Virus record (IMG/VR): IMGVR_UViG_3300013105_000002
Span: 1 to 64,000 of that record
Length of the DNA: 64,000 nucleotides
Direction: 5' to 3' (one strand)
Source: a virus
Lineage: Duplodnaviria > Heunggongvirae > Uroviricota > Caudoviricetes
Of the stretch, positions 13,241-37,728 are shown piece by piece (within the stretch, counting starts at the first letter, position 1; the number at the start of each line of letters is the position of its first letter). The translations under genes and the position numbers were made by a program. Below the pieces are notes generated by a model that was not told the DNA's origin, searched no databases, and saw only the letters and a list, made by a program, of their open reading frames with translations.

Positions 13241-13246
13241 TGTGGT

Positions 13247-14133: not shown

Positions 14134-14168
14134 GTGTCCATCATCAGTTCCAAACCTAAGGAGCACAC

Positions 14169-15050: not shown

Positions 15051-15065
15051 TACAACTGAATAATT

Positions 15066-15136: not shown

Positions 15137-15138
15137 CT

Positions 15139-15210: not shown

Positions 15211-15227
15211 CTCAATAAAGGAGAATC

Positions 15228-26390: not shown

Positions 26391-26445
26391 ATACCCCGGG
26401 GGTATGGTGTTTTCTATACTCTTCTTTGGTATACACTGGGGGTAT
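26391..26445 (+). repeat. two operator-type palindromes without promoter (ATACCCCGGGGGTAT 26391-26405; ATACACTGGGGGTAT 26431-26445)
   Basis: same ATACCC-N-GGGTAT family as downstream array. Confidence 0.6.
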
Positions 26446-26462
26446 ACACCTACCGGCGATAG

Positions 26463-26514
26463 ATACCCCGAAGGGTATCTATGGACTTGACACGTCTTTA
26501 CAGACTGATAGTCT
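26463..26514 (+). promoter_or_regulatory. operator + promoter P1 (leaderless gene 26521)
   Basis: op 26463-26478; -35 TTGACA 26487-26492; -10 TAGTCT 26509-26514; ATG 6 nt downstream. Confidence 0.6.
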
Positions 26515-26520
26515 TCTCTC

Positions 26521-27102
26521 ATGACAACAAACACCACGCCCCACACGAACCACATCCTTGCGGCATACCTGCGAGCATCCGAGGACGACCGTGCCTTTGG
26601 TATCGCTTGGTACCCCGCCGCTCGTGCCCTTGCTGAGAATCTTCTACCTGAGGACGTGAGCACCGCCGCAGGTGTTCTTGCTGCCATGTCTCCCATGACG
26701 TCATGGCCCGAGAACGTCAAGCGCGCGACTGTCGCCATCATGGGTGGCAAGGTCTCGCACACTGGCCCGAACGTTGACAAGGTTCTGCGCATCCTGTCCG
26801 GTGAGCACCCGCTCGACGTGCTGTCCGGTCCCAAGACTCGCGCGTTCTACCTCAACATCATGGGAATCGACAGTGACGAGACGGTCACTGTGGACAGACA
26901 CGCTATCGACGTGGCATGCGGTAATGTCCTCTCGGACTCCGACCGTGCCGGTGCCATCCGTGGCAAGGCAGGCTATGGTAAGGTCGCCGGTATGTACCGT
27001 GAGGCTGCAAGCGTTATCGGAATCACCCCGTGTGCCCTACAGGCCGTTGTTTGGGTGTACTGGCGGCGAAACGTTGCTCAGGCTTTCCACGGTGACGCGT
27101 GA
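26521..27102 (+). CDS. hypothetical protein
   Basis: 193-aa GC-rich ORF. Confidence 0.55.
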   Translation: MTTNTTPHTNHILAAYLRASEDDRAFGIAWYPAARALAENLLPEDVSTAAGVLAAMSPMTSWPENVKRATVAIMGGKVSHTGPNVDKVLRILSGEHPLDVLSGPKTRAFYLNIMGIDSDETVTVDRHAIDVACGNVLSDSDRAGAIRGKAGYGKVAGMYREAASVIGITPCALQAVVWVYWRRNVAQAFHGDA

Positions 27103-27234
27103 GGCTTGACACAAAAATCATTGCGGGGCTAGTGATCATGCTTGCCACTAGCCCCGTATGGTTTCCCATAGCGGTATTTTTCTACCTACTAGCACAGTGA
27201 GGTAGGTGGGCGCAAGCCCACCGGCCTTACATTT

Positions 27235-27305
27235 GTACCCCGAGGGTATTAGATACACCGGGGGTATGTGTAGGGCTTGACGCCCGGTAGGTACTCGGGT
27301 AATGT
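27235..27305 (+). promoter_or_regulatory. two operators + promoter P2 (drives ORF-less transcript)
   Basis: ops 27235-27249, 27253-27267; -35 TTGACG 27277-27282; -10 TAATGT 27300-27305. Confidence 0.55.
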
Positions 27306-27311
27306 TGTCCT

Positions 27312-27685
27312 TGTTGGAAGAGACCGAGGCACACAAGCGGTGAGAGTCCGTTATTCCAACGCACTACCGGAGTGGATAGCAAGTCGCTGCTTGGCTTGCA
27401 AGGACGAAACTCCACTAGGGTTGACTTTAAATCAGCCCCTTTGATTTGTGAATAGAGAGAGTCCACGACTCAGACACAAGCCTCTCATGGCGAGCCGTCA
27501 ATGATTTAGACACCACGCTACTAGTGACACGTTCCATGGAACACGTCCACGCCTCTGACGTTCTCTATTAAACGTTGTATCCGAATGCACGCATCCGTGA
27601 TAACATGACCAATGTCTCTCTCTAGGGTAGGTCTGATCAACCTACCGGCCCCGAGCGCAATGCATGGCGCTCGGGGTCTCATATT
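27312..27685 (+). ncRNA. candidate ~375-nt noncoding RNA (ncRNA-1)
   Basis: promoter P2 to strong terminator (ggccccgagcgc/gcgctcggggtc 27647-27678 + U tail); no ORF >11 aa; multiple hairpins incl. GNRA-looped stems. Confidence 0.5.
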
Positions 27686-27694
27686 GTCATCCAT

Positions 27695-27745
27695 ATACAC
27701 TGGGGGTATCTAGACTCTTGACATGAGCGCTGGTAGGCATAGACT
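27695..27745 (+). promoter_or_regulatory. operator + promoter P3
   Basis: op ATACACTGGGGGTAT 27695-27709; -35 TTGACA 27718-27723; -10 TAGACT 27740-27745. Confidence 0.55.
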
Positions 27746-27751
27746 GAGGAT

Positions 27752-27949
27752 ATGAAATCACCACGAAGAGCAATCATCTACAGCCACGGGCTACGCCCTG
27801 CATTTGACAAGCGCAAGTACAGCGATGACAAGAATCAGGCGCGGCGTGCTGCGAAGGGCGGTGTGCCTTGTGAGAAGTGTGGCAGGGTATACAAAGACCC
27901 CAACAGAAAGCACAACTCCGATCCCAAGAACAAGACGCCATGCCTTTGA
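27752..27949 (+). CDS. hypothetical basic protein
   Basis: 65 aa; CEKCG pair. Confidence 0.5.
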   Translation: MKSPRRAIIYSHGLRPAFDKRKYSDDKNQARRAAKGGVPCEKCGRVYKDPNRKHNSDPKNKTPCL

Positions 27950-27963
27950 GCATGGCCCCCTAT

Positions 27964-27993
27964 ATATCCCTAGGGTATGTCAGAGACTTGACA
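27964..27993 (+). promoter_or_regulatory. operator + -35 of promoter P4
   Basis: op ATATCCCTAGGGTAT 27964-27978; -35 TTGACA 27988-27993; -10 unclear. Confidence 0.4.
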
Positions 27994-28022
27994 GCCCTGA
28001 AGACACATGAGAGAGTATGCAT

Positions 28023-28178
28023 ATGAACAGGAACAAGCGGGCGCAGGCCCCCAAGCGAATCAACCGTCATGACTCTGCAATCGGTGACAAGCGCCGTGCG
28101 CGAAGTGGTCCGGTCATCCGAGGACAGCGTTTCGACAGGAACGATTTCCGCAACCAGAGCATGCGGGGTGAGTGGTGA
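28023..28178 (+). CDS. small basic protein (51 aa)
   Basis: ATG directly downstream of P4. Confidence 0.35.
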   Translation: MNRNKRAQAPKRINRHDSAIGDKRRARSGPVIRGQRFDRNDFRNQSMRGEW

Positions 28179-28336
28179 AGACTTTCGATCCTCTAGAGGT
28201 GACCCTCGTTTATGTCGATGTTCTTGGTACTGAGTACCGACAGAGTGCTGCCGACATTGTGGAAGTTGGAACCCTCATCGATCCTGACACCGGCGACGAT
28301 ATGGAACTCGTGCGAGTCGAAGTTCCCAACAACTAG
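28175..28336 (+). CDS. small acidic protein (53 aa)
   Basis: GTGA overlap; ends before next operator. Confidence 0.35.
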   Translation: MKTFDPLEVTLVYVDVLGTEYRQSAADIVEVGTLIDPDTGDDMELVRVEVPNN

Positions 28337-28366
28337 CAGATTGGCCCTTCGGGGTCAAGCCCCAAT

Positions 28367-28447
28367 ATACCCTGAGTGTATGTCTTGGAGGTATATACCC
28401 TAGGGGTACCAAACCGTATTGACACACCCCCGGCATCCCTGTAATGT
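28367..28447 (+). promoter_or_regulatory. two operators + promoter P5
   Basis: ops 28367-28381, 28395-28409; -35 TTGACA 28419-28424; -10 TAATGT 28442-28447. Confidence 0.55.
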
Positions 28448-28453
28448 TTGAGT

Positions 28454-28550
28454 TGTTGGAGAGAGCAACGGTGAACCAAAGAGTGTGCTTCAAGTCTGGC
28501 ACCGGATTGGGAAAGGGCACTCTCTCCAACTCAGAAAGTTTCTTAGCACA
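28454..28550 (+). ncRNA. structured RNA element (ncRNA-2 or long 5' leader of Lsr2-like gene)
   Basis: 5' TTGTTGGAGAGAG pairs with downstream CTCTCTCCAAC; 5' end paralogous to ncRNA-1; no ORF. Confidence 0.4.
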
Positions 28551-28555
28551 ATCGC

Positions 28556-28584
28556 TTGACACTCTGGTCTACATGGATTAGAGT
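28556..28584 (+). promoter_or_regulatory. promoter P6 (no operator) TTGACA-17-TAGAGT
   Basis: -35 28556-28561, -10 28579-28584; RBS GAAAGGA then ATG 28639. Confidence 0.5.
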
Positions 28585-28638
28585 ACGTAGTACCGGGAAA
28601 GAGACACACGGTCTCTCCCAAACGAAAGGACAACCATC

Positions 28639-29025
28639 ATGGCTTCCAAGCGCATCGCCAACCCGACCGAGGTCCGCACGTGGGCTGCCGCCAACCTCGC
28701 CACCATCGACGGGCTCCCCGAGGGCTACCGCCTCGGTGACCGGGGTCAGTTCCCGCCCGCCGTCATCACCGCCTTCAACAAGGCGCACAAGAACGTCAAG
28801 TACGTGCGTGGCGCGTTCGTCAACAAGACGGCGGTCAAGTTCACCCGCGTGACCGACAAGGGCCGCAAGGTGCCCGGTGTGGCTCACATCGACACCACGA
28901 AGGTCCGTGAGGCTGCCCGTGAGGCCGGTCTGGCGCTCCCGTCCAAGGGCCGTCTTCCGCAGGCCGTGAAGGTCGCCTACGCGCAGGGTCCGGACGCCCT
29001 GAAGGCGCTTGCCGCCACGGTCTGA
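28639..29025 (+). CDS. Lsr2-like DNA-binding protein with two tandem Lsr2-type C-terminal domains
   Basis: VRTWAAANL..LGDRGQFPPAVITAF and VREAAREAGLALPSKGRLPQAVKVAY resemble Lsr2 DBD (RGRIPADVIDAY). Confidence 0.65.
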   Translation: MASKRIANPTEVRTWAAANLATIDGLPEGYRLGDRGQFPPAVITAFNKAHKNVKYVRGAFVNKTAVKFTRVTDKGRKVPGVAHIDTTKVREAAREAGLALPSKGRLPQAVKVAYAQGPDALKALAATV

Positions 29026-29033
29026 AGGCCGCA

Positions 29034-29057
29034 GGGCCTCCCCTCCGGGGGAGGCCC
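29034..29057 (+). terminator. hairpin terminator
   Basis: gggcctcccc tcc ggggaggccc. Confidence 0.55.
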
Positions 29058-29075
29058 TAGCCTTTCGTCTATCAC

Positions 29076-29128
29076 ATACCCCAAGGGTATCCCATCGGAG
29101 TTGACAGGCTACTGTGAGCGTGTAGACT
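29076..29128 (+). promoter_or_regulatory. operator + promoter P7
   Basis: op ATACCCCAAGGGTAT 29076-29090; -35 TTGACA 29101-29106; -10 TAGACT 29123-29128. Confidence 0.6.
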
Positions 29129-29160
29129 GAACCTATCAACCCACGACATTGGAGGAACCA

Positions 29161-29586
29161 ATGAGCAAGCACTACCCCGGAACTCCCAAGGCATGGGCCG
29201 CCGAGCGCGGTCTCTGTGGCACGGGACGTGGACGCCCGCCCAAGGCTGCCATGGATGCCATTGCGGCTGCCATCGCTGACGGTTGGACGTTCGGCGGTGG
29301 GTCGGTGGTGGTGAACAAGTCCGCTGAGCCCACGGGGCCGGTGGTGGAGAAGCCCAAGGACGACAGCCCCAAGGGTGAGGCTGAAGGCGTGAACGTCTAC
29401 GCTGACGCGTTCTACCGCTATGACCGTGAGCAGAAATTCTACTATGAGCATGAGGGCAAGCGTCACGAGTGCTCTGGTCGCACGGCTTGCATGGGCTGTG
29501 GATACAGTCTCATTGGACACACGTGCAACGAAATGGTAGGCTTGACCAAGCACGGACAGAAAGTCATCAAGCCGCTGGGAGAGTGA
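29161..29586 (+). CDS. protein with N-terminal Lsr2-type DNA-binding motif and C-terminal Cys cluster
   Basis: RBS GGAGG; KAWAAERG..GRGRPPKAAMDAIAAA; C-terminal HECSGRTACMGCG. Confidence 0.55.
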   Translation: MSKHYPGTPKAWAAERGLCGTGRGRPPKAAMDAIAAAIADGWTFGGGSVVVNKSAEPTGPVVEKPKDDSPKGEAEGVNVYADAFYRYDREQKFYYEHEGKRHECSGRTACMGCGYSLIGHTCNEMVGLTKHGQKVIKPLGE

Positions 29587-29589
29587 CAT

Positions 29590-29862
29590 ATGGCACGCAT
29601 GAGCATTGAACAGAAACTCGCTGACAAGGTGGTGGATGCCACTCTGAGAGCAGACTTCGATGCGCCTCGGTTTGCCTACATCATGAACCGTTGTGGATGG
29701 AAGATTCAGGAAGTTCTGTTTCAGGTGGTGCTCGGGATGATCCGTCACTGGGCTATTGACCTAGAGACGGACAACACCAAGGGTGGAGCCGATGAGTATT
29801 ACCGGCTGACCATCAAGGCGAAAATCCTGCAGGATGCCATCGACCGTAACAAAATCGAGTGA
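29590..29862 (+). CDS. hypothetical protein
   Basis: 90-aa ORF. Confidence 0.5.
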   Translation: MARMSIEQKLADKVVDATLRADFDAPRFAYIMNRCGWKIQEVLFQVVLGMIRHWAIDLETDNTKGGADEYYRLTIKAKILQDAIDRNKIE

Positions 29863-29911
29863 GATTAGGGAGTCATCGTAAGAGGTGGCTCCCTACCTCA
29901 TTGGGGTATGC

Positions 29912-29990
29912 ATACCCTTGGGGTATTTGTATTGATACATACCCCGGGGGTATTGTCAGGGCTTGACGGATGACTCTGAGGTGATAGTCT
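29912..29990 (+). promoter_or_regulatory. operators + promoter P8 (leaderless)
   Basis: ops 29912-29926, 29939-29953 (plus inverted copy 29903-29917); -35 TTGACG 29963-29968; -10 TAGTCT 29985-29990; ATG 6 nt later. Confidence 0.6.
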
Positions 29991-29996
29991 TTAGCC

Positions 29997-30509
29997 ATGA
30001 ACCTCACAGACGCACAGATGCTCGCACGCACGGCTCTCGACGCCCACGGTCTCACCGACAAGGGTTGGCGAGTCGAGTGGGACAATGCCAAGAGGCGCAA
30101 CGGCTCTGCCTCATCCTCTGCTCGTGTCATCACCCTGTCGGCACCGCTGACGCACCTGAAGACACCTGAAGAGATGCGTCAGACCATTGGTCACGAAATC
30201 GCTCACGCCCTTGTTGGTACCCAGCACGGACACGGGCCGGTGTGGAAGGCCAAGATGCGGGAGTTGGGCCTAGTCGTGTCCACTACGGCAGTCCTCTCGG
30301 AAGAGACACGCGGCCAGATTGCCACGCTGAGGAACTACACCCTCACGTGCGTGGTGAACGGCAAGAGTCTCGGACACCTTGACAGGATCGTCAAGCAGCG
30401 CAAGGTCAGGCGCGGGGGCGGGTATGTCCTACGTACCTATGGCGCTCGTGTCTGCAAGTGCCACGGGGAGCCTGTCCTCTACAACGGCAAGTCATGGGAC
30501 GATATCTGA
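29997..30509 (+). CDS. SprT-like zinc metallopeptidase
   Basis: GHEIAHAL (HExxH) + downstream H/G; C-terminal CKCHG zinc ribbon. Confidence 0.7.
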   Translation: MNLTDAQMLARTALDAHGLTDKGWRVEWDNAKRRNGSASSSARVITLSAPLTHLKTPEEMRQTIGHEIAHALVGTQHGHGPVWKAKMRELGLVVSTTAVLSEETRGQIATLRNYTLTCVVNGKSLGHLDRIVKQRKVRRGGGYVLRTYGARVCKCHGEPVLYNGKSWDDI

Positions 30510-30538
30510 AAGGCAAGGCCCTACGGGGTCTAACCGTT

Positions 30539-30590
30539 ATACCCTGAGGGTAATTCCACCATTGACACCCGCGCCGGTAGGTGGTTGAAT
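30539..30590 (+). promoter_or_regulatory. operator + promoter P9
   Basis: op 30539-30553; -35 TTGACA 30562-30567; -10 TTGAAT 30585-30590. Confidence 0.5.
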
Positions 30591-30622
30591 AGCACTATCA
30601 ACCAAACGTCCTAGGAGGACAC

Positions 30623-30805
30623 ATGAAGACGGTAACTCTCTACTTCGTTGCACAGCCCGAGCCTGATGGCAGCACGCCGAACCCGAGCCTCTTCTACCTG
30701 AACGAAGACTACGACTTCGTGTCTCAGGAAGTTCCTCAGGGTGAGCGTGTCTACAGCGTCGGCGCGATCCTCATGGATGACACTGTGGAGGAAGTTGCCA
30801 ACTGA
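30623..30805 (+). CDS. hypothetical protein
   Basis: RBS AGGAGG; 60 aa. Confidence 0.5.
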   Translation: MKTVTLYFVAQPEPDGSTPNPSLFYLNEDYDFVSQEVPQGERVYSVGAILMDDTVEEVAN

Positions 30806-30825
30806 GCCCTTCGGGGTTTAGCCAC

Positions 30826-30875
30826 ATACCCTGAGGGTATGTCTCACTTGACAAGCGCCGGTGGATGCGTAGACT
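30826..30875 (+). promoter_or_regulatory. operator + promoter P10 (leaderless)
   Basis: op ATACCCTGAGGGTAT 30826-30840; -35 30848-30853; -10 TAGACT 30870-30875. Confidence 0.6.
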
Positions 30876-30881
30876 AGAGGC

Positions 30882-31097
30882 ATGGACATGGAAATCATTG
30901 ACACAGTACAGGCCCACACGTTGGAGCCGGGAGACACCATCGAGTACATCGATGACGAGGGACGCCGCTCACTTCAAGAAATCAAGAGCGCCGAAGACCT
31001 CGGAGACACCATCCGTGTGCAGTTGGAAGACTACGACGACGTAGACCTCTATGCTGATGGTGAGCAGAACATCTACGGATATCCTGCCGAAGACTGA
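30882..31097 (+). CDS. hypothetical acidic protein
   Basis: 71-aa ORF. Confidence 0.5.
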   Translation: MDMEIIDTVQAHTLEPGDTIEYIDDEGRRSLQEIKSAEDLGDTIRVQLEDYDDVDLYADGEQNIYGYPAED

Positions 31098-31162
31098 CAG
31101 GAACGCGGGGGAGTCGGAGAAATTCGGCTCCCCCAAACCTGTATCGTAAAGCCCATGAACAT

Positions 31163-31263
31163 TTCCCGAGGGTATCTACATACCCCAAGGGTATAGGATC
31201 ACACAAAACAAATACCCCATGAGGTATGGATGGGCTTGACAGGTCTCTGGGAACTGATAGTCT
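31163..31263 (+). promoter_or_regulatory. three operators + promoter P11 (leaderless)
   Basis: ops 31163-31175, 31180-31194, 31212-31227; -35 TTGACA 31236-31241; -10 TAGTCT 31258-31263. Confidence 0.6.
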
Positions 31264-31269
31264 TTACCT

Positions 31270-31635
31270 ATGAACGAACGAGACAAGCCGATGACCGGCG
31301 AGCACGCAGCAATCATCTTCGCGCAGGGCCTCACCGCCAAGTTCGCAGACAGCGAGTGGCCGTACAACCCTGAGTTCTCCGCTGATCTTTCGGGCAAGAA
31401 GTACATCCGAATCGTCAATGAGGGCAACCCTCACCCCGAGGACCAGACAACGAACCTGTACCGTCGTCAGCGCTCGTGCCACGCGTACGTGGACCGCGAG
31501 ACGGGCGAGGTGTACAAGTCCTCAGGATGGAAGGGTGGACCGGCCAAGGTCAACGGCAAGGCCGATGCACGATACCCCAACGTTTGGGAGGCTCTGGTCA
31601 AGGCTGACCGGAACGGAGGATACCTGTACAAGTAA
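31270..31635 (+). CDS. hypothetical protein
   Basis: 121-aa ORF. Confidence 0.55.
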   Translation: MNERDKPMTGEHAAIIFAQGLTAKFADSEWPYNPEFSADLSGKKYIRIVNEGNPHPEDQTTNLYRRQRSCHAYVDRETGEVYKSSGWKGGPAKVNGKADARYPNVWEALVKADRNGGYLYK

Positions 31636-31653
31636 CAGGTGTCAAGCAGGGAA

Positions 31654-31767
31654 ATACCCTTCGGGGTATTTTCTTGTTCTTACCCTATACCCTAGGGGTA
31701 TGCCTTGAAACGAAATACCCTTGGGGTATGGGATGGTGTTGACAGCCCTGCTCCCATGGTGTTTACT
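31654..31767 (+). promoter_or_regulatory. three operators + promoter P12 (leaderless)
   Basis: ops 31654-31669, 31687-31701, 31715-31729; -35 TTGACA 31739-31744; -10 TTTACT 31762-31767. Confidence 0.55.
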
Positions 31768-31773
31768 AGAGAT

Positions 31774-32037
31774 ATGAACAAGCAGACGCGCAAAGCGTAC
31801 CTCACTGACCTTGGTGCCCGTATCTACAATGCGGACACCTCCACCGAACTCATCGTGATCGCCACGGACATGGCAGATGCCGCGTCCATGGGTCGCTCGG
31901 AGACATGGAAGGGTGCTTGCACGATGGCAGGACGACGCACCCTCGCCAAGTTCAACATCGGTGTCCCGGTGCCATTCAAGGACGTTGGTGCCGTGGTCCA
32001 GCAAGGCTACGATGCCATGGTGGCAGCCAACAAGTAA
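31774..32037 (+). CDS. hypothetical protein
   Basis: ORF 31705 start overlaps promoter; ATG 31774 used. Confidence 0.5.
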   Translation: MNKQTRKAYLTDLGARIYNADTSTELIVIATDMADAASMGRSETWKGACTMAGRRTLAKFNIGVPVPFKDVGAVVQQGYDAMVAANK

Positions 32038-32042
32038 GCCCG

Positions 32043-32064
32043 CTAGGCCCCTCCGGGGGCCTAG
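32043..32064 (+). terminator. hairpin terminator
   Basis: ctaggcccc tccg ggggcctag. Confidence 0.5.
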
Positions 32065-32079
32065 CCTTATTAGCATGAG

Positions 32080-32131
32080 ATACACCGGGGGTATGTTCTA
32101 GGCTTGACACACACTACCAGACTGATAGTAT
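32080..32131 (+). promoter_or_regulatory. operator + promoter P13 (leaderless)
   Basis: op ATACACCGGGGGTAT 32080-32094; -35 32104-32109; -10 TAGTAT 32126-32131. Confidence 0.6.
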
Positions 32132-32137
32132 TTACCC

Positions 32138-32371
32138 ATGAGCCAAATGACATTCCACGAGCAGTTCGGTGAAGTTTCTGTCGCACAACTCCGTGCATAC
32201 AAGGCGCACAACGTCTCTCAGTCCGACCACGACTCCCTCGCCACGTTCTACTCCGAGGGCGGCCACGAGTCCATCACAAAGGCGGTGAAAGACCCACGCA
32301 ACCACGTGCCCGGAACGAGGTTGTTCTCGTGGCACACGTGGTACTCCAACACCGAGCGTTACAACTGGTGA
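32138..32371 (+). CDS. hypothetical protein
   Basis: 77-aa ORF. Confidence 0.5.
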   Translation: MSQMTFHEQFGEVSVAQLRAYKAHNVSQSDHDSLATFYSEGGHESITKAVKDPRNHVPGTRLFSWHTWYSNTERYNW

Positions 32372-32406
32372 ACACACCGGCCCTACGGGGTCCGTGTGTA
32401 TACCCC

Positions 32407-32458
32407 GGGGGTAATTAGAGTGTTGACCACCAGCGCCGGTAGGTGTAGAGTAAAGGTA
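32407..32458 (+). promoter_or_regulatory. operator + promoter P14 (drives ORF-less transcript)
   Basis: op 32407-32421; -35 TTGACC 32430-32435; -10 TAGAGT 32453-32458. Confidence 0.5.
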
Positions 32459-32464
32459 TTGAAG

Positions 32465-32606
32465 GGGATGGAAGGACGCAAGGTGCAAATCCCTGCTAGC
32501 AATTGAACCCTTCGACGCAAGACATGTATGTGACAGTGCATGCCATAGAGACTAGTCATCTCGCCGGGGCCTGAGCCTGACTAACTCAGGTCTCTTGCTT
32601 TTGCCA
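32465..32606 (+). ncRNA. candidate ~140-nt noncoding RNA (ncRNA-3)
   Basis: no + strand ORF; ends in hairpin cctgag...ctcagg + tctcttgcttttg. Confidence 0.4.
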
Positions 32607-32611
32607 TACAC

Positions 32612-32758
32612 ATACCCTAGGGGTAAATTCGGCTCCTAGAATCGCTTATCGTAAACGGTCTGTTCGCTATCCCCCAAGGGTGCACATACCCTCGTGGGAT
32701 TTGATATACCCTTGGGGTATGCCAGACAGGTTGACACGTCCCGGCATGTGAGTAGACT
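32612..32758 (+). promoter_or_regulatory. operators + promoter P15
   Basis: ops 32612-32626, 32686-32700, 32706-32720; -35 32731-32736; -10 TAGACT 32753-32758; leader with RBS GAGGAAA. Confidence 0.55.
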
Positions 32759-32795
32759 TGGACCATCAGCCAAACCGAGTAGTGAGGAAACTACA

Positions 32796-33065
32796 ATGGC
32801 ACGTCAACTCCGAGTCATCGCCCGCGAGATCGTGAAGGACTACGCAGACAAGGGCAAGCCGGTCACGCCGTTTGCCAAGCCGTACGTGGACGCGATGCTC
32901 ACGATGGACAGCGTGGCCGACACCTACGGAGCCGAGAGTGGCGAGTACGTCGTCCTCTACGGGCTGCACAACCTCTCCGGATGGCGAGGCGAGAAGGCAC
33001 GCGAGGTGAAGGCCGAACTGAAGGCTCTTGTCTCCGAGCATCGCAGGGCGAACCCGCGCCGGTGA
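32796..33065 (+). CDS. hypothetical protein
   Basis: ATG 32796 after RBS; 89 aa. Confidence 0.5.
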   Translation: MARQLRVIAREIVKDYADKGKPVTPFAKPYVDAMLTMDSVADTYGAESGEYVVLYGLHNLSGWRGEKAREVKAELKALVSEHRRANPRR

Positions 33066-33070
33066 GTGGA

Positions 33071-33090
33071 GGGGACTTCGGTCCCCTTTT
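33071..33090 (+). terminator. rho-independent terminator
   Basis: ggggac ttcg gtcccc tttt. Confidence 0.6.
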
Positions 33091-33104
33091 CTCATACCCT
33101 GCCA

Positions 33105-33156
33105 ATACCCCGAGGGTATAGTTTGGTGTTGACAGGTCGGGCGGTAGGAGTAGACT
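33105..33156 (+). promoter_or_regulatory. operator + promoter P16 (leaderless)
   Basis: op ATACCCCGAGGGTAT 33105-33119; -35 33129-33134; -10 TAGACT 33151-33156. Confidence 0.6.
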
Positions 33157-33162
33157 GAGAAC

Positions 33163-33375
33163 ATGAAAACGATCAATGGATGCGCAGTCATCGCCCACCG
33201 TCCCTACGGCAACACCCTTCCGTCTGAGGGTTTCGTGATCCTCGCAGTCAAGACGCTCGGTGACTCTTACGAGTACATCACTGCTGTTGTCTCCACGCTC
33301 GATGACAGGGAGTGGTTCTGGGGTCACTACATCACCTCGCTAGAGGAAGCCACGTCCGACTACTTCTCTCGCTGA
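33163..33375 (+). CDS. hypothetical protein
   Basis: 70-aa ORF. Confidence 0.5.
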   Translation: MKTINGCAVIAHRPYGNTLPSEGFVILAVKTLGDSYEYITAVVSTLDDREWFWGHYITSLEEATSDYFSR

Positions 33376-33405
33376 GAGGGGAGGCCCCACGGGGTCTTTC
33401 CATAT

Positions 33406-33457
33406 ATACCCTGAGGGTATGTCAACGCATTGACAGCCCTCCAATCCTTGATAGGAT
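33406..33457 (+). promoter_or_regulatory. operator + promoter P17 (leaderless)
   Basis: op 33406-33420; -35 33430-33435; -10 TAGGAT 33452-33457. Confidence 0.55.
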
Positions 33458-33463
33458 GTAGTC

Positions 33464-33631
33464 ATGTACTACGACATGGACGACCACCGTTGCTTCGACT
33501 GTGATGGGCGCTACTGCCCACCGGGCCAGTGCCTCCGTACCGAGACCTCCGTGTGGGTCGTGGGTCACGGTTGGACCGACCCCGAGACTGCCAAGGGCTT
33601 TGAGGCTCTGGGAAGGACGGTGCAGTGGTGA
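33464..33631 (+). CDS. small Cys-rich protein (55 aa)
   Basis: CFDCDGRYCPPGQC; below track cutoff. Confidence 0.4.
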   Translation: MYYDMDDHRCFDCDGRYCPPGQCLRTETSVWVVGHGWTDPETAKGFEALGRTVQW

Positions 33632-33649
33632 GGCTTCGGCCTTACACAT

Positions 33650-33701
33650 ATCCCCTAAGGGTATGTCTAGGTGTTGACACCTGACCTGTAGGGTGTAGAC
33701 T
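33650..33701 (+). promoter_or_regulatory. operator + promoter P18
   Basis: op ATCCCCTAAGGGTAT 33650-33664; -35 33674-33679; -10 TAGACT 33696-33701. Confidence 0.55.
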
Positions 33702-33708
33702 TAGGGAC

Positions 33709-33918
33709 ATGAAGACGATCACAGTGACCATGACCGGCGAGGCTTTCGAGTCCTACAGCGTGGACGGGGCCTACTTCCCCGAGTTCAAGAACGACGAGAG
33801 CGGCGAGTGGGATGCCATTCCTGCCGTCTTCGTCGGACGCCCCATCATGCACCGTGGACAGGTGGGAGACGCAACGATCCTCTACGGGCTCGACGTTCGG
33901 AAGGTGACAATGCAGTAA
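33709..33918 (+). CDS. hypothetical protein
   Basis: 69-aa ORF. Confidence 0.5.
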   Translation: MKTITVTMTGEAFESYSVDGAYFPEFKNDESGEWDAIPAVFVGRPIMHRGQVGDATILYGLDVRKVTMQ

Positions 33919-33950
33919 AGGGCAGGCCCCTCCGGGGGTCACTCCCATAT

Positions 33951-34003
33951 ATACCCTCGGGGTAAGTCTGAGACTTGACATGCATGCCCTAGGGGTACAT
34001 AAT
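33951..34003 (+). promoter_or_regulatory. operator + promoter P19 (leaderless); half-operator inside spacer
   Basis: op 33951-33965; -35 33975-33980; -10 CATAAT 33998-34003. Confidence 0.5.
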
Positions 34004-34009
34004 TGGAAC

Positions 34010-34213
34010 ATGAACACGATCCGAGACCTCATCCTCACCGCCAACGGTGGCAGTATGCACACGGCCACCCTGAACACGCTCACCATGCTTGTGTTCGCGG
34101 TCCTCTTCATCGCTGCCGGTGTTGCTTGCGCCTACGTCGTGGCAGCCCTCACGGCACAGCACAAGGCTCACATGCACACCGACAAGGTGACCGTCATCAC
34201 CGACGCACAGTGA
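34010..34213 (+). CDS. small membrane protein
   Basis: ATG 34010; one TM helix. Confidence 0.5.
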   Translation: MNTIRDLILTANGGSMHTATLNTLTMLVFAVLFIAAGVACAYVVAALTAQHKAHMHTDKVTVITDAQ

Positions 34214-34229
34214 CCCCGGAAGGGGCTAT

Positions 34230-34281
34230 ATACCCTTAGGGTATGTTTGAGGTTTGACACAATGCCCCAAACTGATATGCT
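34230..34281 (+). promoter_or_regulatory. operator + promoter P20
   Basis: op ATACCCTTAGGGTAT 34230-34244; -35 34254-34259; -10 TATGCT 34276-34281. Confidence 0.55.
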
Positions 34282-34309
34282 TGTCCTACCAACCACGGAA
34301 GGGGACACA

Positions 34310-34516
34310 ATGTCTCGCAAGGATTACGAAGCGCTCGCGGCAGTCATCGCGGGTGAGGTGGCATGTGCGGCAGGTAACAAGGACAAACTGCGCACGTCCT
34401 CCAACATCGCTCGGAGCATGGCTGACGTGTTCCACCGTGGAAACGAGCGTTTCGACCGTGTGCGCTTTTACAAGGCTTGCGGACTGGACATGACGGGCGG
34501 TTTCCCCGACGTGTGA
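34310..34516 (+). CDS. hypothetical protein
   Basis: RBS GGAAGGGGA + ATG 34310. Confidence 0.5.
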   Translation: MSRKDYEALAAVIAGEVACAAGNKDKLRTSSNIARSMADVFHRGNERFDRVRFYKACGLDMTGGFPDV

Positions 34517-34521
34517 GAGCG

Positions 34522-34545
34522 TGGCCCCTACGGGGGCCATTGCTT
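34522..34545 (+). terminator. rho-independent terminator
   Basis: tggcccc tacg ggggcca + ttgctttt. Confidence 0.6.
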
Positions 34546-34556
34546 TTACCTAGCAT

Positions 34557-34608
34557 ATACCCTCGGGGTATATATAGGCTTGACAGTGCACCTAGGGTGT
34601 GATTGAAT
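34557..34608 (+). promoter_or_regulatory. operator + promoter P21
   Basis: op ATACCCTCGGGGTAT 34557-34571; -35 34580-34585; -10 TTGAAT 34603-34608. Confidence 0.55.
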
Positions 34609-34644
34609 TGTCTTCTCAACCAGAACACCTCCCAAGGAGACACC

Positions 34645-34785
34645 ATGATCGTCGAAATCCGCAACAACGGTCTCATCATCGACTACGTGGTAATGCCTAA
34701 CTTCCGAGCGGCTGTCATGTTCACCCAGAGATTCAACCGAGTCTCCACAAACAAGGGTTTCACCCAGAGGGCGGTGATCGCCTGA
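34645..34785 (+). CDS. hypothetical protein (46 aa)
   Basis: RBS AAGGAGA + ATG 34645. Confidence 0.4.
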   Translation: MIVEIRNNGLIIDYVVMPNFRAAVMFTQRFNRVSTNKGFTQRAVIA

Positions 34786-34806
34786 GCCCTTCGGGGCTTT
34801 CCCCAT

Positions 34807-34858
34807 ATACACTCGGGGTATATCAATGGCTTGACACGAGGCCGGTATTTGATATGCT
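34807..34858 (+). promoter_or_regulatory. operator + promoter P22 (drives ORF-less transcript)
   Basis: op ATACACTCGGGGTAT 34807-34821; -35 34831-34836; -10 TATGCT 34853-34858. Confidence 0.55.
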
Positions 34859-34864
34859 TGTTAT

Positions 34865-34968
34865 ATGAGGTCGGAGGGAGAGCGGACCAAAAAAGTCTCA
34901 CCGTCAGAGAAGACGCAAATCGCACAGTGAGTCTAGGCTGCAAGGGTCTAGGCTCACTTGTTTGTCTA
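34865..34968 (+). ncRNA. candidate ~105-nt noncoding RNA (ncRNA-4)
   Basis: no ORF; 3' hairpin gtgagtctaggc...ctaggctcac 34927-34957 + TTGTTTG. Confidence 0.45.
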
Positions 34969-34972
34969 TAGA

Positions 34973-35023
34973 ATACCCTAGGGGTATACAAGTGGCTTGA
35001 CACATGCCGCCGATCTGATAGAG
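34973..35023 (+). promoter_or_regulatory. operator + promoter P23 (leaderless)
   Basis: op ATACCCTAGGGTAT 34973-34986; -35 34996-35001; -10 TAGAGT 35018-35023. Confidence 0.55.
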
Positions 35024-35029
35024 TTCTCA

Positions 35030-35113
35030 CATGGGAATCATCATCGTGTCACTGCTCGCAGCAATCTTTTGGCGCATCGCCATCAGCCCGATCATCGACA
35101 GTTTCAACAAGTA
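35030..35113 (+). CDS. tiny hydrophobic peptide (27 aa)
   Basis: ATG 6 nt after -10; followed by strong terminator. Confidence 0.25.
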
Positions 35114-35120
35114 GGGCGTG

Positions 35121-35148
35121 AAAGGCCCGGAGAAATCCGGGCCTTTTG
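35121..35148 (+). terminator. rho-independent terminator
   Basis: aaggcccgga gaaa tccgggcctt + ttgcg. Confidence 0.65.
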
Positions 35149-35175
35149 CGTGTCATCGTAAAAGGCCCAATTGGT

Positions 35176-35190
35176 ATACCCCAAGGGTAC
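35176..35190 (+). repeat. orphan operator copy ATACCCCAAGGGTAC
   Basis: no -35 downstream; sits before bidirectional terminator. Confidence 0.5.
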
Positions 35191-35206
35191 AAAACGGGCA
35201 TGAGAA

Positions 35207-35235
35207 GACCCTAGGTGCGCCGCTCACCTAGGGTC
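35207..35235. terminator. bidirectional terminator (perfect 11-bp stem)
   Basis: gaccctaggtg cgccgct cacctagggtc between convergent + and - genes. Confidence 0.6.
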
Positions 35236-35245
35236 TCTCTGGGTC

Positions 35246-35398
35246 TCAGGCCATGGACACCTCACGCTTCCACGTGGAGCGCTCACGGCGCTTGGCGATC
35301 CGTCGTGCCATCTTACGGGCGCTGGGCGCGTCACCGCAGCAAGAGCAGTCACGACCACCGGGGCCGTAGGGGCAGGACTTGCCAATCATGCGAGCCAT
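35246..35398 (-). CDS. small basic Cys-rich protein (50 aa), only minus-strand gene in the early array
   Basis: MARMIGKSCPYGPGGRDCSCCGD...RRIAKRRERSTWKR; own promoter. Confidence 0.45.
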   Translation of the reverse strand: MARMIGKSCPYGPGGRDCSCCGDAPSARKMARRIAKRRERSTWKREVSMA

Positions 35399-35437
35399 GA
35401 TTTTCTCTCTCTGTAGTTGTTTTTTCTTGCTGGGATA

Positions 35438-35467
35438 AACATATGACAGATGGCCGGTGGTGTCAAG
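35438..35467 (-). promoter_or_regulatory. minus-strand promoter CTTGACA-17-TATGTT
   Basis: revcomp of 35461-35467 = -35; revcomp of 35438-35443 = -10; divergent from P25. Confidence 0.5.
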
Positions 35468-35475
35468 CCGATCCA

Positions 35476-35555
35476 ATACCCCAAGGGTAAATCATCAGAC
35501 AGATACCCCTAGGGTATGTTTTTGGCTTGACGATGTTTCCGCATTCCCGTAGTGT
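35476..35555 (+). promoter_or_regulatory. two operators + promoter P25
   Basis: ops 35476-35490, 35503-35517; -35 TTGACG 35527-35532; -10 TAGTGT 35550-35555. Confidence 0.5.
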
Positions 35556-35601
35556 TTCTCTTGTCAGGAGGAAACGCCTCCCCCACACAAAAGGATTTGA
35601 A

Positions 35602-35895
35602 ATGTCGCTCTCCCTCGCCGGAACCAAGTCCACGGTTGTCTCGCCCGCCTCGCACGGCATCGACAACTACGGCCCCGAGGTGCAGGCAATCACCTTCAAG
35701 TACAACGGGGTCGCCTACACGATCAACCGTCGTGGCAACTCCAACGTCAAGGGCTTCCACTCCTTCCGGAACAACACGTACACGGTCACCAACGGCACCG
35801 ACCGTGTGTCGAACATGATCGTCAACCGTTTCGACTTCGTGTCCATCCTCTACACTGACGGTCGAATCGAGTCGAACGACTACACCGCTCGATGA
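35602..35895 (+). CDS. hypothetical protein
   Basis: RBS AAAGGA + ATG 35602; 97 aa. Confidence 0.5.
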   Translation: MSLSLAGTKSTVVSPASHGIDNYGPEVQAITFKYNGVAYTINRRGNSNVKGFHSFRNNTYTVTNGTDRVSNMIVNRFDFVSILYTDGRIESNDYTAR

Positions 35896-35900
35896 GAGGC

Positions 35901-35918
35901 AGGCCCCTTCGGGGGCCT
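35901..35918 (+). terminator. hairpin terminator
   Basis: aggcccc ttcg ggggcct. Confidence 0.55.
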
Positions 35919-35940
35919 AGCCTTTCGCCCATGACATACC

Positions 35941-35955
35941 CTCGGGGTATGTAGT
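35941..35955 (+). repeat. operator copy ATACCCTCGGGGTAT (weak promoter downstream)
   Basis: -35-like TTGTGT 35964-35969 only. Confidence 0.4.
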
Positions 35956-35993
35956 CTATTGTGTTACTGTCCGGTAGGGTATAGGGTGGTCAC

Positions 35994-36155
35994 ATGACCA
36001 AATACAAGTATGAGATTTTCCACGCTGTCAGTGGCGGCTTTTTCACGGGTCACCTTCACACGGTGTACTCCAACTCCAACGATGCCAACCTGTGGTGCGA
36101 GACGTTCGAACGTCAGGGCTACACGGGCCTCTACATGATCCGCAGGGAGGTCTAG
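35994..36155 (+). CDS. hypothetical protein (53 aa)
   Basis: + strand ORF; overlapping minus-strand ORF 35964-36239 judged spurious. Confidence 0.4.
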   Translation: MTKYKYEIFHAVSGGFFTGHLHTVYSNSNDANLWCETFERQGYTGLYMIRREV

Positions 36156-36183
36156 CACAAAGACCCTTCGGGGTCCATTAACA

Positions 36184-36236
36184 ATTACCCTCGGGGTATG
36201 TGTAGGGCTTGACATGATCCCCAGAACTGATAAACT
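36184..36236 (+). promoter_or_regulatory. operator + promoter P26 (leaderless)
   Basis: op 36184-36199; -35 36209-36214; -10 TAAACT 36231-36236. Confidence 0.55.
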
Positions 36237-36242
36237 CATGCC

Positions 36243-36461
36243 ATGAACGAAAACGAGATCACCCGCATCGTGGCCGACGCTCTGCGTGAGGCTTACGCCA
36301 TCAACACCGCTCAGTTCAAGGACGAGAAGGTGGAGCGTGAGACCGTGGACAGCGTGCTGTATGACGTTGCCTACAACATCGCTCAGGAGGTATGGCCCAC
36401 GCGCAGCCCTGAGTCTCCGGTCATGCCAGACGAGTGGTTGGAGGCGATCAAGGGTCGCTGA
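36243..36461 (+). CDS. hypothetical protein
   Basis: 72-aa ORF. Confidence 0.5.
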   Translation: MNENEITRIVADALREAYAINTAQFKDEKVERETVDSVLYDVAYNIAQEVWPTRSPESPVMPDEWLEAIKGR

Positions 36462-36466
36462 GGATA

Positions 36467-36487
36467 GGCTCCCACGGGAGCCTTTTC
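36467..36487 (+). terminator. rho-independent terminator
   Basis: ggctccc ac gggagcc + ttttcc. Confidence 0.6.
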
Positions 36488-36501
36488 CTTTACCCTACCG
36501 C

Positions 36502-36554
36502 ATACCCTAGGGGTATATATGGGGCTTGACATGGAGTCGGGCGGCAGGTAATGT
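36502..36554 (+). promoter_or_regulatory. operator + promoter P27
   Basis: op ATACCCTAGGGGTAT 36502-36516; -35 36526-36531; -10 TAATGT 36549-36554. Confidence 0.55.
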
Positions 36555-36589
36555 TCTTCTTGTCAGAACATCGATGAAAGGAAACTGAC

Positions 36590-36736
36590 ATGTACGAGCA
36601 CCCCGACCACGGCATCATGACTCTGGAAGAAGTTTGGATGACCGACGCTGGTGTGAAGTACGGTCGATTCGTGACCGTCAAGTGGGGAACGTCCATCAAC
36701 ATGCCCATCTGCATGGTGCACAAGTTGCCATCATGA
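36590..36736 (+). CDS. hypothetical protein (48 aa)
   Basis: RBS AAAGGA + ATG 36590. Confidence 0.4.
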   Translation: MYEHPDHGIMTLEEVWMTDAGVKYGRFVTVKWGTSINMPICMVHKLPS

Positions 36737-36753
36737 TGTAAAGGAAATCCGGT

Positions 36754-36778
36754 CAGCCCTTCGGGGTTGGCTGTTTTT
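36754..36778 (+). terminator. rho-independent terminator
   Basis: cagccc ttcg gggttg + ctgttttt. Confidence 0.6.
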
Positions 36779-36790
36779 CCGGTCAAGCCT

Positions 36791-36843
36791 ATACCCTTGG
36801 GGTATATCAGTACGCTTGACATGCCCCGATTTTCTGATTAGGC
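36791..36843 (+). promoter_or_regulatory. operator + promoter P28
   Basis: op ATACCCTTGGGGTAT 36791-36805; -35 36816-36821; weak -10 TTAGGC 36838-36843. Confidence 0.45.
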
Positions 36844-36881
36844 TGGGGCTACGCCCAAGCAACACCGACTAAGGAGACACC

Positions 36882-37151
36882 GTGAACGTCACCCCGAAGA
36901 CCGCCGCTCGCCAGATCGTCCTCGCCCGTGCGGAGCGTGCTGCAAAGCCCGTTTACACGTCCGAGACGGGCGTGGTGCGTCCGGTTCGCGTGGAGGCCGC
37001 TCCCATCGTGGAGGACGACCCGCACTGCTTCGTTTGTGGTCGGCACACGGATCACTTCGCAGAGCACGACGACATGGTGGAGGCTGGCACGGCCACCTAC
37101 GGCGAGGACGGGAGTGTCTACCCTGTCCCGTGGAACTTCATCCTCGGGTGA
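36882..37151 (+). CDS. hypothetical protein
   Basis: RBS AAGGAGA + GTG 36882; CFVCG..H pair. Confidence 0.5.
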   Translation: MNVTPKTAARQIVLARAERAAKPVYTSETGVVRPVRVEAAPIVEDDPHCFVCGRHTDHFAEHDDMVEAGTATYGEDGSVYPVPWNFILG

Positions 37152-37156
37152 GGCGA

Positions 37157-37178
37157 GGGGCCGAAAGGCCCCTTTCTT
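37157..37178 (+). terminator. rho-independent terminator
   Basis: ggggcc gaaa ggcccc + tttctt. Confidence 0.65.
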
Positions 37179-37190
37179 CATGTGTGTGAC

Positions 37191-37243
37191 ATACCCTCGG
37201 GGTATCCCAAAGTATTGACAAAAGCGCCGGTAGCAAATAGGCT
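37191..37243 (+). promoter_or_regulatory. operator + promoter P29
   Basis: op ATACCCTCGGGGTAT 37191-37205; -35 37215-37220; -10 TAGGCT 37238-37243. Confidence 0.55.
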
Positions 37244-37278
37244 ATGCGTAGCAAGCCAAACAGAAGAGAGAAGGAACA

Positions 37279-37491
37279 ATGTCTTTCCTTGCAGAAGCAC
37301 ATCAGGAATGGCACACGGTTCATGGACAGGTCGTTTGTCCTCTGGATTGTGGAATCGGAGAGGGTCAGGACGACTACGATCACGAGCCCATGACCGAAGA
37401 AGAGGAAATCGAACTTCAAGCATGGCGAGCACGACAGGAAGCGATGGATTCCACTGATGATCCCGCTCCTTGGGAGGTTGCCCCGTTTTGA
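37279..37491 (+). CDS. hypothetical acidic protein
   Basis: RBS AGAAGGA + ATG 37279; 70 aa. Confidence 0.5.
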   Translation: MSFLAEAHQEWHTVHGQVVCPLDCGIGEGQDDYDHEPMTEEEEIELQAWRARQEAMDSTDDPAPWEVAPF

Positions 37492-37550
37492 GAAGAAGGC
37501 CCGAAGAAATTCGGGTCTTTTTTCTTTTTATCGTAAGCGACCATCATGAC

Positions 37551-37623
37551 ATACCCCCGGGGGAATTCGGGTTGTTTTGGGCTCTATCGTAAATGAGCCT
37601 TTTGATATACCCCCGGGGGATAT
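37551..37623 (+). repeat. two variant operator copies (ATACCCCCGGGGGAAT 37551-37566; ATACCCCCGGGGGATAT 37607-37623) abutting the DnaA-box cluster
   Basis: each preceded by ATCGTAA(A/G) motif. Confidence 0.5.
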
Positions 37624-37728
37624 CCACAGGATATCCACAGCTGTGGATAAGTTGTGGATAAGTTATCCACAGCCTGTGCAAAAGTTATCCACAGGTTGTC
37701 CACATATGGGGATAACCCCTGTGGATAG
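37620..37728. promoter_or_regulatory. cluster of 8 DnaA-box 9-mers (oriC-like / DnaA-binding region)
   Basis: ATATCCACA x2 (37620, 37631), TGTGGATAA x2 (37642, 37653), TTATCCACA x2 (37663, 37685), TTGTCCACA (37696), TGTGGATAG (37720). Confidence 0.7.

Follow-up and report, generated by a model that had tools for sequence, protein, structure and literature searches.

What does a phage promoter produce when no gene follows it? Promoter P14 belongs to an uncultivated phage of which we analysed a window of 64,000 nucleotides, half of a genome of ~130 kb. The sequence-only reading of this window had proposed that P14 drives an ORF-less transcription unit, ncRNA-3, and its non-coding character is supported by the lack of a conserved ORF, by a promoter and a T-tract that are kept and by five helices with compensatory changes. 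We estimate at about 0.55 the probability that positions 32458-32602 are a free-standing gene for a structured non-coding RNA of ~145 nt, which would act in trans as a folded particle.

Promoter, terminator and coding potential of the P14 unit

P14 is present on the + strand upstream of ncRNA-3 in the form that had been described, with a -35 hexamer TTGACC (32423-32428), a 17-nt spacer and a -10 hexamer TAGAGT (32446-32451). A regulator-site palindrome, ATACCCCGGGGGTAA (32400-32414, + strand), lies 8 nt 5' of the -35. It is one of 42 matches to the palindrome ATACCCNNNGGGTAT found between 26391 and 37634, where 1.2 would be expected. Nearly all ATACCCNNNGGGTAT copies are located 8-9 nt upstream of a TTGACA-16/17-TAGACT promoter, and the region from 30 to 36 kb contains 14 promoter-like sites (2.8 expected). 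That P14 is 'operator-controlled', as the sequence-only reading has it, is inferred from its palindrome, a recurring site upstream of the -35 that could serve an activator and a repressor equally well. Ten or more of the other promoters in the region have an ATG exactly 7 nt past the -10, indicating that the mRNAs are leaderless, and a separate hairpin terminator stands after each small gene. Taken together, palindromes, sigma-70-type promoters, mostly leaderless ORFs and terminators define 26391-37634 as an array of one-gene early modules. P14 differs from the neighbouring promoters of this array in that no ATG is present at +7.

In Streptomyces BE1 phages, the region syntenic with this 11-kb array is the terminal repeat, of ~11 kb. 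The ribonucleotide reductase (RNR) encoded in the window is 57% identical at the protein level to that of the Streptomyces cluster BE1 phages, and the gene order matches that of phage Peebs: a set of small genes, one of them for an Lsr2-like protein, is followed by ThyX, glycosyltransferase, RNR, lysin and portal. An actinobacterium is the probable host. A DNA search of INPHARED with the ncRNA-3 locus and the 20 kb around it gave no match. Comparison of the neighbouring proteins with Pfam and PHROGs returned only families of unknown function, so that the context carries no functional hint.

The unit had been described as ending at a hairpin followed by a T-tract, and both were found at 32568-32602. 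The hairpin, flagged as terminator-like, has 8 bp formed by GGCCTGAG (32568-32575) and CTCAGGTC (32585-32592) with CCTGACTAA between the arms, and is located ~110 nt downstream of P14. The T-tract TCTTGCTTTT (32593-32602) follows directly; as RNA, this terminator tail reads UCUUGCUUUU and is invariant in all variants described below. Transcription would end within it, near 32598-32602. The start is most likely A32458, because the distance from the -10 to the ATG is fixed at 7 nt in the leaderless genes of the array. Of the earlier delimitation of the unit, 32465-32606, the ORF-less unit itself is thus retained; the start at 32465 is replaced by the likelier A32458 and the end is moved to about 32598-32602. 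On the + strand, the resulting ~145-nt RNA (32458-32602) has its 5' end placed by analogy with the leaderless genes and its 3' end in the T-tract.

These signals are also found in related phages. A copy of the palindrome precedes the ncRNA-3 promoter in contigs L003, L005-L007, L010 and L129. Both promoter hexamers are shared by the window and L129 types (TTGACG-17-TAGAGT in L129), whose spacer sequences differ, and L129 also retains the start region and the T-tract. Contig L012 starts within the promoter spacer and shows the -10, the start region and the T-tract only.

Does the unit encode a protein? About 140 nt without a + strand ORF had been noted after P14. The longest + strand ORFs past P14 are one of 36 aa, which starts upstream of the promoter, and a TTG ORF of 23 aa (32503-32574); neither is kept in the variants. 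On the minus strand, a 58-aa ORF (32383-32559) overlaps the P14 promoter; regarded from the outset as spurious, it is interrupted by stops in the L129 and L012 variants. Six-frame translation of the three variants revealed stops in all six frames and indels of 1, 2, 5 and 8 nt. A small coding ORF in relatives had been named as the finding that would speak against an RNA gene; none is conserved on either strand. We also considered a small-protein gene, or an RNA with a dual function, in which either the 23-aa ORF or a leaderless TTG ORF starting at 32459 (+ strand; 15 aa, MKGMEGRKVQIPASN if TTG is read as Met) would be translated. The TTG is located 8 nt past the -10, near the start position of the leaderless genes of the array, and a genuine leaderless ORF of only 27 aa exists at 35031. 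However, past its third codon the 15-aa peptide of TTG 32459 is unrelated to those of L012 (22 aa) and L129, while the indels shift the frames and every frame contains stops. Translation of the unit is therefore hardly credible. As to the 27-aa ORF (MGIIIVSLLAAIFWRIAISPIIDSFNK, 35031-35114), it encodes a hydrophobic peptide, starts 7 nt past the -10 of a promoter at 34997-35024, is followed by a terminator and falls below the threshold of most gene callers.

A common fold kept by compensatory changes

In order to obtain relatives of the locus, we performed exact-protein look-ups of two flanking genes, which led to 12 ENA and Logan assembly contigs, of which two measure 130-131 kb. Two more contigs, L129 and L130, were reached via a 92%-identical homologue of the 89-aa protein encoded downstream. 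Conservation in related phages, suggested earlier as a check on the unit, was found: ncRNA-3 is present once in each of 13 related contigs, as three sequence variants that are 67-80% identical, and five helices are kept by compensatory changes. The structure was derived from the window sequence and the pattern of substitutions; a covariance model (R1) was then built and the homologues were realigned to it. In what follows 32458 is position 1 and all strands are +.

The predicted fold comprises a 5' and a 3' domain. In the 5' domain (32460-32514), helix P1 (3-9/51-57, i.e. 32460-32466/32508-32514) encloses hairpin P2 (21-26/34-39, 32478-32483/32491-32496), whose loop UGCAAAU is not conserved. 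P1 and P2 are separated by an internal loop of 11 x 11 nt, GAUGGAAGGAC/UAGCAAUUGAA. The 3' domain is closed by P3 (60-65/136-141), in which GCAAGA (32517-32522) pairs with UCUUGC (32593-32598), the first 6 nt of the terminator tail. It contains three arms. P4 (66-72/79-85, 32523-32542) pairs CAUGUAU with GUGCAUG around the loop GUGACA. The P5 arm (32543-32567) starts with a CC/GG extension (86-87/109-110, 32543-32544/32566-32567), continues with a 3 x 3 internal loop and ends with the inner stem GAGA/UCUC (91-94/102-105, 32548-32551/32559-32562) and the loop CUAGUCA (32552-32558). P6 is the terminator hairpin itself, GGCCUGAG/CUCAGGUC (111-118/128-135, 32568-32592), with the loop CCUGACUAA (32576-32584).

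The variants share this one common fold, which is kept through compensatory changes in P1, P2, P4, P5 and P6. In an alignment of the four distinct sequences (A8), 97.3% of the pair cells are standard pairs and 13 of the 38 pairs are changed on both sides; these four sequences represent three independent variants, from which the structure was partly derived and which are too few for R-scape-level significance. When the 3' partners were slid by 1-3 columns as a control, 31-55% of the cells were paired and 0-3 pairs were changed on both sides, and none of 500 shuffles reached the observed pairing values. RNAalifold independently gave the same 37 pairs, 13 of them compensatory. Model R1 scored 175 bits on the window unit, 171-176 bits on the carriers and at most 21 bits on the reverse strand. 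For the window and L129 the common fold is essentially the minimum free energy (MFE) structure; in L012 it is 4.4 kcal/mol less stable than the MFE structure. The single-sequence folding energy of the window RNA is ordinary (z = -0.66), and it is the comparison with relatives, not the window by itself, that makes the case for more than chance.

The helices are not equally documented. Compensatory support is strong for P4, in which four of seven pairs are changed on both sides with 100% of cells paired, and for P6, with five such pairs out of eight. It extends to P2 (two such pairs), P1 (one such pair, plus two changed on one side) and P5 (one such pair, the closing A-U, which becomes U-A in L129). 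P3 is invariant in all variants and is predicted in the MFE fold and by RNAalifold. Since P3 and the CC/GG extension of P5 never vary, covariation neither supports nor refutes them, and both are to be taken as predicted pairings. Neither the 5' internal loop nor the P2 loop is conserved in L012 or L129: the P2 loop is CGUAAC in L129, and the 11 x 11 internal loop is replaced by one of 17 x 4 in L012. Judged from these substitutions, P2 is the least constrained helix of the RNA. A C-to-A change in L006 (position 5482) and L009, corresponding to window position 32491, breaks its loop-closing G-C pair.

Does the structure act as RNA or as DNA? A DNA-level element, such as a replication origin or a packaging or recombination site, could use the same hairpins in single-stranded DNA; the locus is indeed rich in inverted repeats and its region is syntenic with the BE1 phage terminal repeat. 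However, each variant contains 2-4 G.U pairs on the + strand, which as G.T would become A.C mismatches on the other strand. These pairs, together with the low reverse-strand score, indicate that the folded molecule is a plus-strand RNA made in the direction of P14. The orientation also fits the promoter and the terminator, and close relatives, which need to replicate and package their DNA as well, lack the unit. We consider a role of the unit as DNA barely probable.

Provided that P3 and the CC/GG extension do form, the helices P3, P4, P5 and P6 of the 3' domain meet in a four-way junction without unpaired linkers, of which the terminator hairpin P6 is one arm. P5 (2 bp, 3 x 3 loop, 4 bp) makes an arm about as long as P6 (8-9 bp), and in both of them the loops are invariant and the stems variable: CUAGUCA of the P5 loop and GACUA of the P6 loop are found in all variants, as is UGACA of the P4 loop. 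The two invariant loops are complementary to each other, UAGUCA of P5 to UGACUA of P6; the match spans 6 nt in the window and L129 (chance probability ~0.002) and 5 nt in L012 (~0.013). This complementarity suggests a P5-P6 loop-loop contact that would compact the molecule. The sequence fits a contact between two molecules just as well, and a 4-nt pairing of UGACA in the P4 loop with GUCA in the P5 loop is also conceivable.

Gene context and distribution in related phages

The block 32400-32681 is 96-100% identical in 11 of the 12 look-up contigs, with differing neighbours, and the ncRNA-3 unit is 96-98% identical in L003, L005, L006, L007, L009, L010 and L011. The gene upstream of the unit varies, with a product of 77, 93 or 110 aa. 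Downstream, most relatives carry a gene for a 79-aa protein; in the window, L004 and L012 this gene is missing, the RNA is retained and is directly followed by the gene for the 89-aa protein. Whichever gene comes downstream of ncRNA-3, a palindrome and a promoter of its own precede it, and the 79-aa gene is leaderless from that promoter. Since the flanking genes differ between relatives, ncRNA-3 appears to be a free-standing module that moves between contexts, not a leader tied to one gene.

These data bear directly on a role in cis, in which the folded 5' part of a riboswitch or attenuator would sense a ligand or factor and control read-through of P6 into the downstream gene, with the P5-P6 contact tuning termination. 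The terminator hairpin does lie within the conserved fold, and its loop is both conserved and complementary to an upstream loop, a pairing that recalls the kissing loop of the cobalamin riboswitch. Such a leader is nevertheless distinctly unlikely, given a downstream gene that is not constant and is served by its own promoter, from which the 79-aa mRNA starts without a leader. Moreover, no alternative antiterminator pairing is evident and no riboswitch family was matched at E values up to 10.

Positions 32603-32681, immediately 3' of the RNA, are near-invariant in close relatives (2-3 substitutions), identical in L012 and absent in L129. They contain a palindrome (32612-32626) flanked by TTGCCA (32601) and TAAATT (32629), which together resemble a promoter with the site in its spacer, as well as 40 nt of unassigned role and a degenerate palindrome (32655-32671) without the promoter that is present there in L003.

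The two diverged types are found in L129 and L130, whose unit is 80% identical to that of the window, and in L012, where the flanks are identical to the window and the transcribed core is 67% identical. Identical flanks around a diverged core are the pattern of an exchange between functional alleles, not of decay. Could the unit still be a non-functional remnant, i.e. a promoter-terminator cassette emptied by gene loss or decay and conserved through recent divergence only? Most copies are 96-100% identical and the distribution is narrow, the unit being absent in more distant relatives, as would be expected of such a cassette. However, the two diverged variants changed 20-33% of their positions while every helix was kept by paired substitutions, and the L012 configuration likewise argues against decay, which makes a remnant very improbable.

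The distribution was further delimited with R1. Searches of the more distant relatives L119-L128 and L131-L144, reached via homologues of the 89-aa and 79-aa neighbour proteins, gave no match, nor did the first 30 kb of the Streptomyces phage Peebs (BE1). The absence of ncRNA-3 from L120-L128 and L131-L144 implies that it is dispensable. R1 detected no second copy of ncRNA-3 in the window, and the other ORF-less units are thus not paralogues of the whole RNA. Wider homologues were sought with the pattern GCAAGAC-N(12-40)-GAGACTAGTCA, which returned seven loci in IMG/VR and 99 in JGI metagenomes. All were rejected as chance matches, as nhmmer scored them at 12 bits or less, over the pattern only. 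Two stricter patterns had no match in IMG/VR, and one of them had none in GTDB genomes either. From these comparisons ncRNA-3 appears as a genuine accessory module, carried in the immediate-early array by a small clade of uncultivated viruses that resemble actinophages.

Another ORF-less unit of the array, of ~100 nt (34865-34965), lies behind a promoter at 34831-34858 and is closed at its 3' end by a terminator hairpin of 14 bp (34926-34958); its identity in L120-L122, L129, L139 and L140 is 86-88%.

Known RNA families and possible mode of action

We compared ncRNA-3 with known RNAs. Rfam 15 (4227 models, among them Phage_pRNA, c4, T-box, Cobalamin, tRNA, tmRNA, 6S, Y RNA, GOLLD, ROOL and self-cleaving ribozymes), applied to the whole window at gathering thresholds, detected six tRNAs elsewhere and nothing at ncRNA-3. 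At E values up to 10, the locus and its L012 variant gave only noise matches to microRNA models, with 12-14 bits. ARAGORN predicted seven tRNAs in the window, at 1.5-15.2 kb, and no tRNA or tmRNA at 32.4-32.6 kb. A tRNA-like cloverleaf was considered for the 3' domain and discarded on the basis of ARAGORN, the Rfam tRNA model and the geometry of the arms, whose lengths of 6, 7, 2+4 and 8 bp, with loop pairing on the third and fourth arms, are unlike those of tRNA. Likewise, a cobalamin-like or T-loop character of the P2 hairpin (GG-UGCAAAU-CC) was rejected: it had no Rfam match, the loop is CGUAAC in L129 and the closing pair is broken in L006 and L009. A descriptor of a shared 5' domain, with P1 enclosing a UGNRA hairpin, gave five matches against 2.5 expected and was not discriminating. 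A literature search returned nothing on non-coding RNAs of this phage group. Altogether, the comparisons point to ncRNA-3 as a genuine new family of small structured phage RNAs with a narrow distribution.

Several free-standing small RNAs of phages, lambda OOP, P22 sar, P1/P7 c4 and P4 CI RNA, have their own promoter and intrinsic terminator and act through antisense pairing to a nearby phage transcript. Like them, ncRNA-3 is a short ORF-less unit running from promoter to terminator in an early or regulatory region. Unlike them, it has no complementary phage target that we could find in the window; it is also more elaborately folded, with six helices, and has no match to the Rfam family of c4. 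For the loops of P4, P5 and P6 and for the 3' strand of the internal loop, the 64-kb window contains no complementary stretch of at least 9 nt, only scattered 8-mers at chance level. The purine-rich 5' strand of the internal loop has a few 9-mer complements in the window, two of them on the + strand (38160 and 63940), with no obvious target.

This search is relevant to a base-pairing sRNA, whose loops UGACA (P4), CUAGUCA (P5) and GACUA (P6), or whose GGAAGGA internal loop, would be seeds that pair with mRNAs of the host or the phage and affect how stable these are or how they are translated. The promoter-to-terminator build and the size are typical of trans-acting sRNAs, and the loop sequences are invariant among the variants. 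On the other hand, the conserved unpaired stretches are just 5-7 nt long, two of the conserved loops are complementary to each other and hence not free, and the loops are not C-rich, unlike those of known actinobacterial sRNAs. With, in addition, no target in the 64-kb window indicated by either set of complements, we consider action by base pairing unlikely; a target would have to lie in the host or in the other half of the phage genome.

The resemblance to the pRNA of phi29 is of another kind. That RNA has a three-way junction and a 4-nt intermolecular loop complementarity that builds a ring on the portal, and belongs to small protein-primed podoviruses. As in pRNA, an early RNA of 120-170 nt, the 5' and 3' regions of ncRNA-3 are predicted to pair into a closing helix next to a multi-helix junction, and two hairpin loops are complementary. 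However, the predicted junction is four-way, Phage_pRNA was not matched at E values up to 10, and the carrier is a 130-kb relative of the Streptomyces BE1 siphoviruses. Furthermore, pRNA is essential for packaging, whereas ncRNA-3 is absent from relatives such as L120-L128 and is dispensable.

Species 1 and 2 of T4 (band C and band D) are small, stable, structured RNAs of unassigned function in a large lytic phage with tRNA genes. The ncRNA-3 phage also has tRNA genes, seven in number, and a CCA-adding-type enzyme. The T4 species are co-transcribed with the tRNA cluster and processed from it, whereas ncRNA-3 runs from a promoter to a terminator of its own, at a distance of 17 kb from the nearest tRNA gene. 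The tRNA genes of the window (1572-15211) correspond to three Leu, two Thr, one Gly and one His; one tRNA-Leu (1891-1976) was called by ARAGORN and not by Rfam. A gene of the CCA-adding/poly(A)-polymerase family (PF01743 and PF12627) is located at 19236-19961.

GOLLD, ROOL and HEARO share with ncRNA-3 a phage-borne structure supported by covariation, but these RNAs are of 300-800 nt and widespread, whereas ncRNA-3 measures 145 nt, occurs in a small clade only and has no match among them. In the cobalamin riboswitch (RF00174) a kissing loop connects the aptamer with the expression platform; similarly, the loop of the ncRNA-3 terminator hairpin is conserved and complementary to an upstream hairpin loop. 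The GGUGCAAAUCC hairpin of the window variant also recalls the cobalamin core, but its GGUG..UCC loop is not conserved in L129, neither RF00174 nor its variants were matched and no constant gene follows.

How could ncRNA-3 act? We favour a particle recognised by its shape and acting in trans, because conservation is concentrated in the junction and in the mutually pairing loops, because no long conserved single-stranded seed is present and because the downstream gene differs between relatives; this mode of action is read from the pattern of conservation only. In the mechanism that we propose, the ORF slot of one module of the array would be filled by an RNA, made from P14 and stopping at its own intrinsic terminator. 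The terminator hairpin P6 would be an integral arm of the mature fold, the tail UCUUGC would pair back to GCAAGA in P3 and close the four-way junction, and pairing of the P5 and P6 loops would lock a compact particle, preceded by the more variable P1-P2 domain. Produced early in infection, the RNA would bind or titrate a protein or another macromolecule, as a decoy or a scaffold. It would be neither an mRNA, nor the leader of the next gene, nor a linear antisense RNA.

Immediate-early arrays are the usual site of host-takeover and anti-defence functions in phages, and its place in such an array suggests that ncRNA-3 may be an RNA-based version of such a function. To our knowledge phage-encoded non-coding RNAs are few, and hardly any is characterised for actinobacterial phages. 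ncRNA-3 offers a compact candidate of 145 nt with a defined promoter and terminator and a fold backed by natural compensatory mutations. Its architecture would be unusual, with a terminator hairpin that is built into a four-way junction and carries a loop matching that of another arm. Its immediate impact is limited, since the distribution is narrow and no phage-host pair is in culture. The P5 and P6 loops might also join separate molecules hand in hand into a multimeric RNA particle that assembles itself right after infection, a speculation that we rate as a long shot. Such a particle could be a scaffold, or a decoy for a host factor or defence system, in principle like the phi29 pRNA ring or the RNA-only cages that have reportedly been described recently for ROOL and GOLLD.

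A further ORF-less unit, of ~380 nt (27312-27690), lies behind a promoter TTGACG-17-TAATGT (27277-27305). It has a folding z-score of -3.3 and no Rfam match, and is 71-73% conserved in L120, L121, L124 and L125, distant relatives without ncRNA-3; its 5' domain is strongly variable among relatives. The P2 hairpin of the L012 variant of ncRNA-3 (L012:48-67, TGGCGGTGAAACCCCGCAGG) is identical at 17 of 20 positions to the inner 5' hairpin of the 380-nt RNA in L124 (L124:6261-6280, TGACGGTGAAAGCCCGTAGG), and both occupy the same relative place inside a P1 helix. None of 2000 shuffles reached the score of this pair, and the other 11 pairs of variants were non-significant. The two RNAs may thus share, or have exchanged, a 5' hairpin module.
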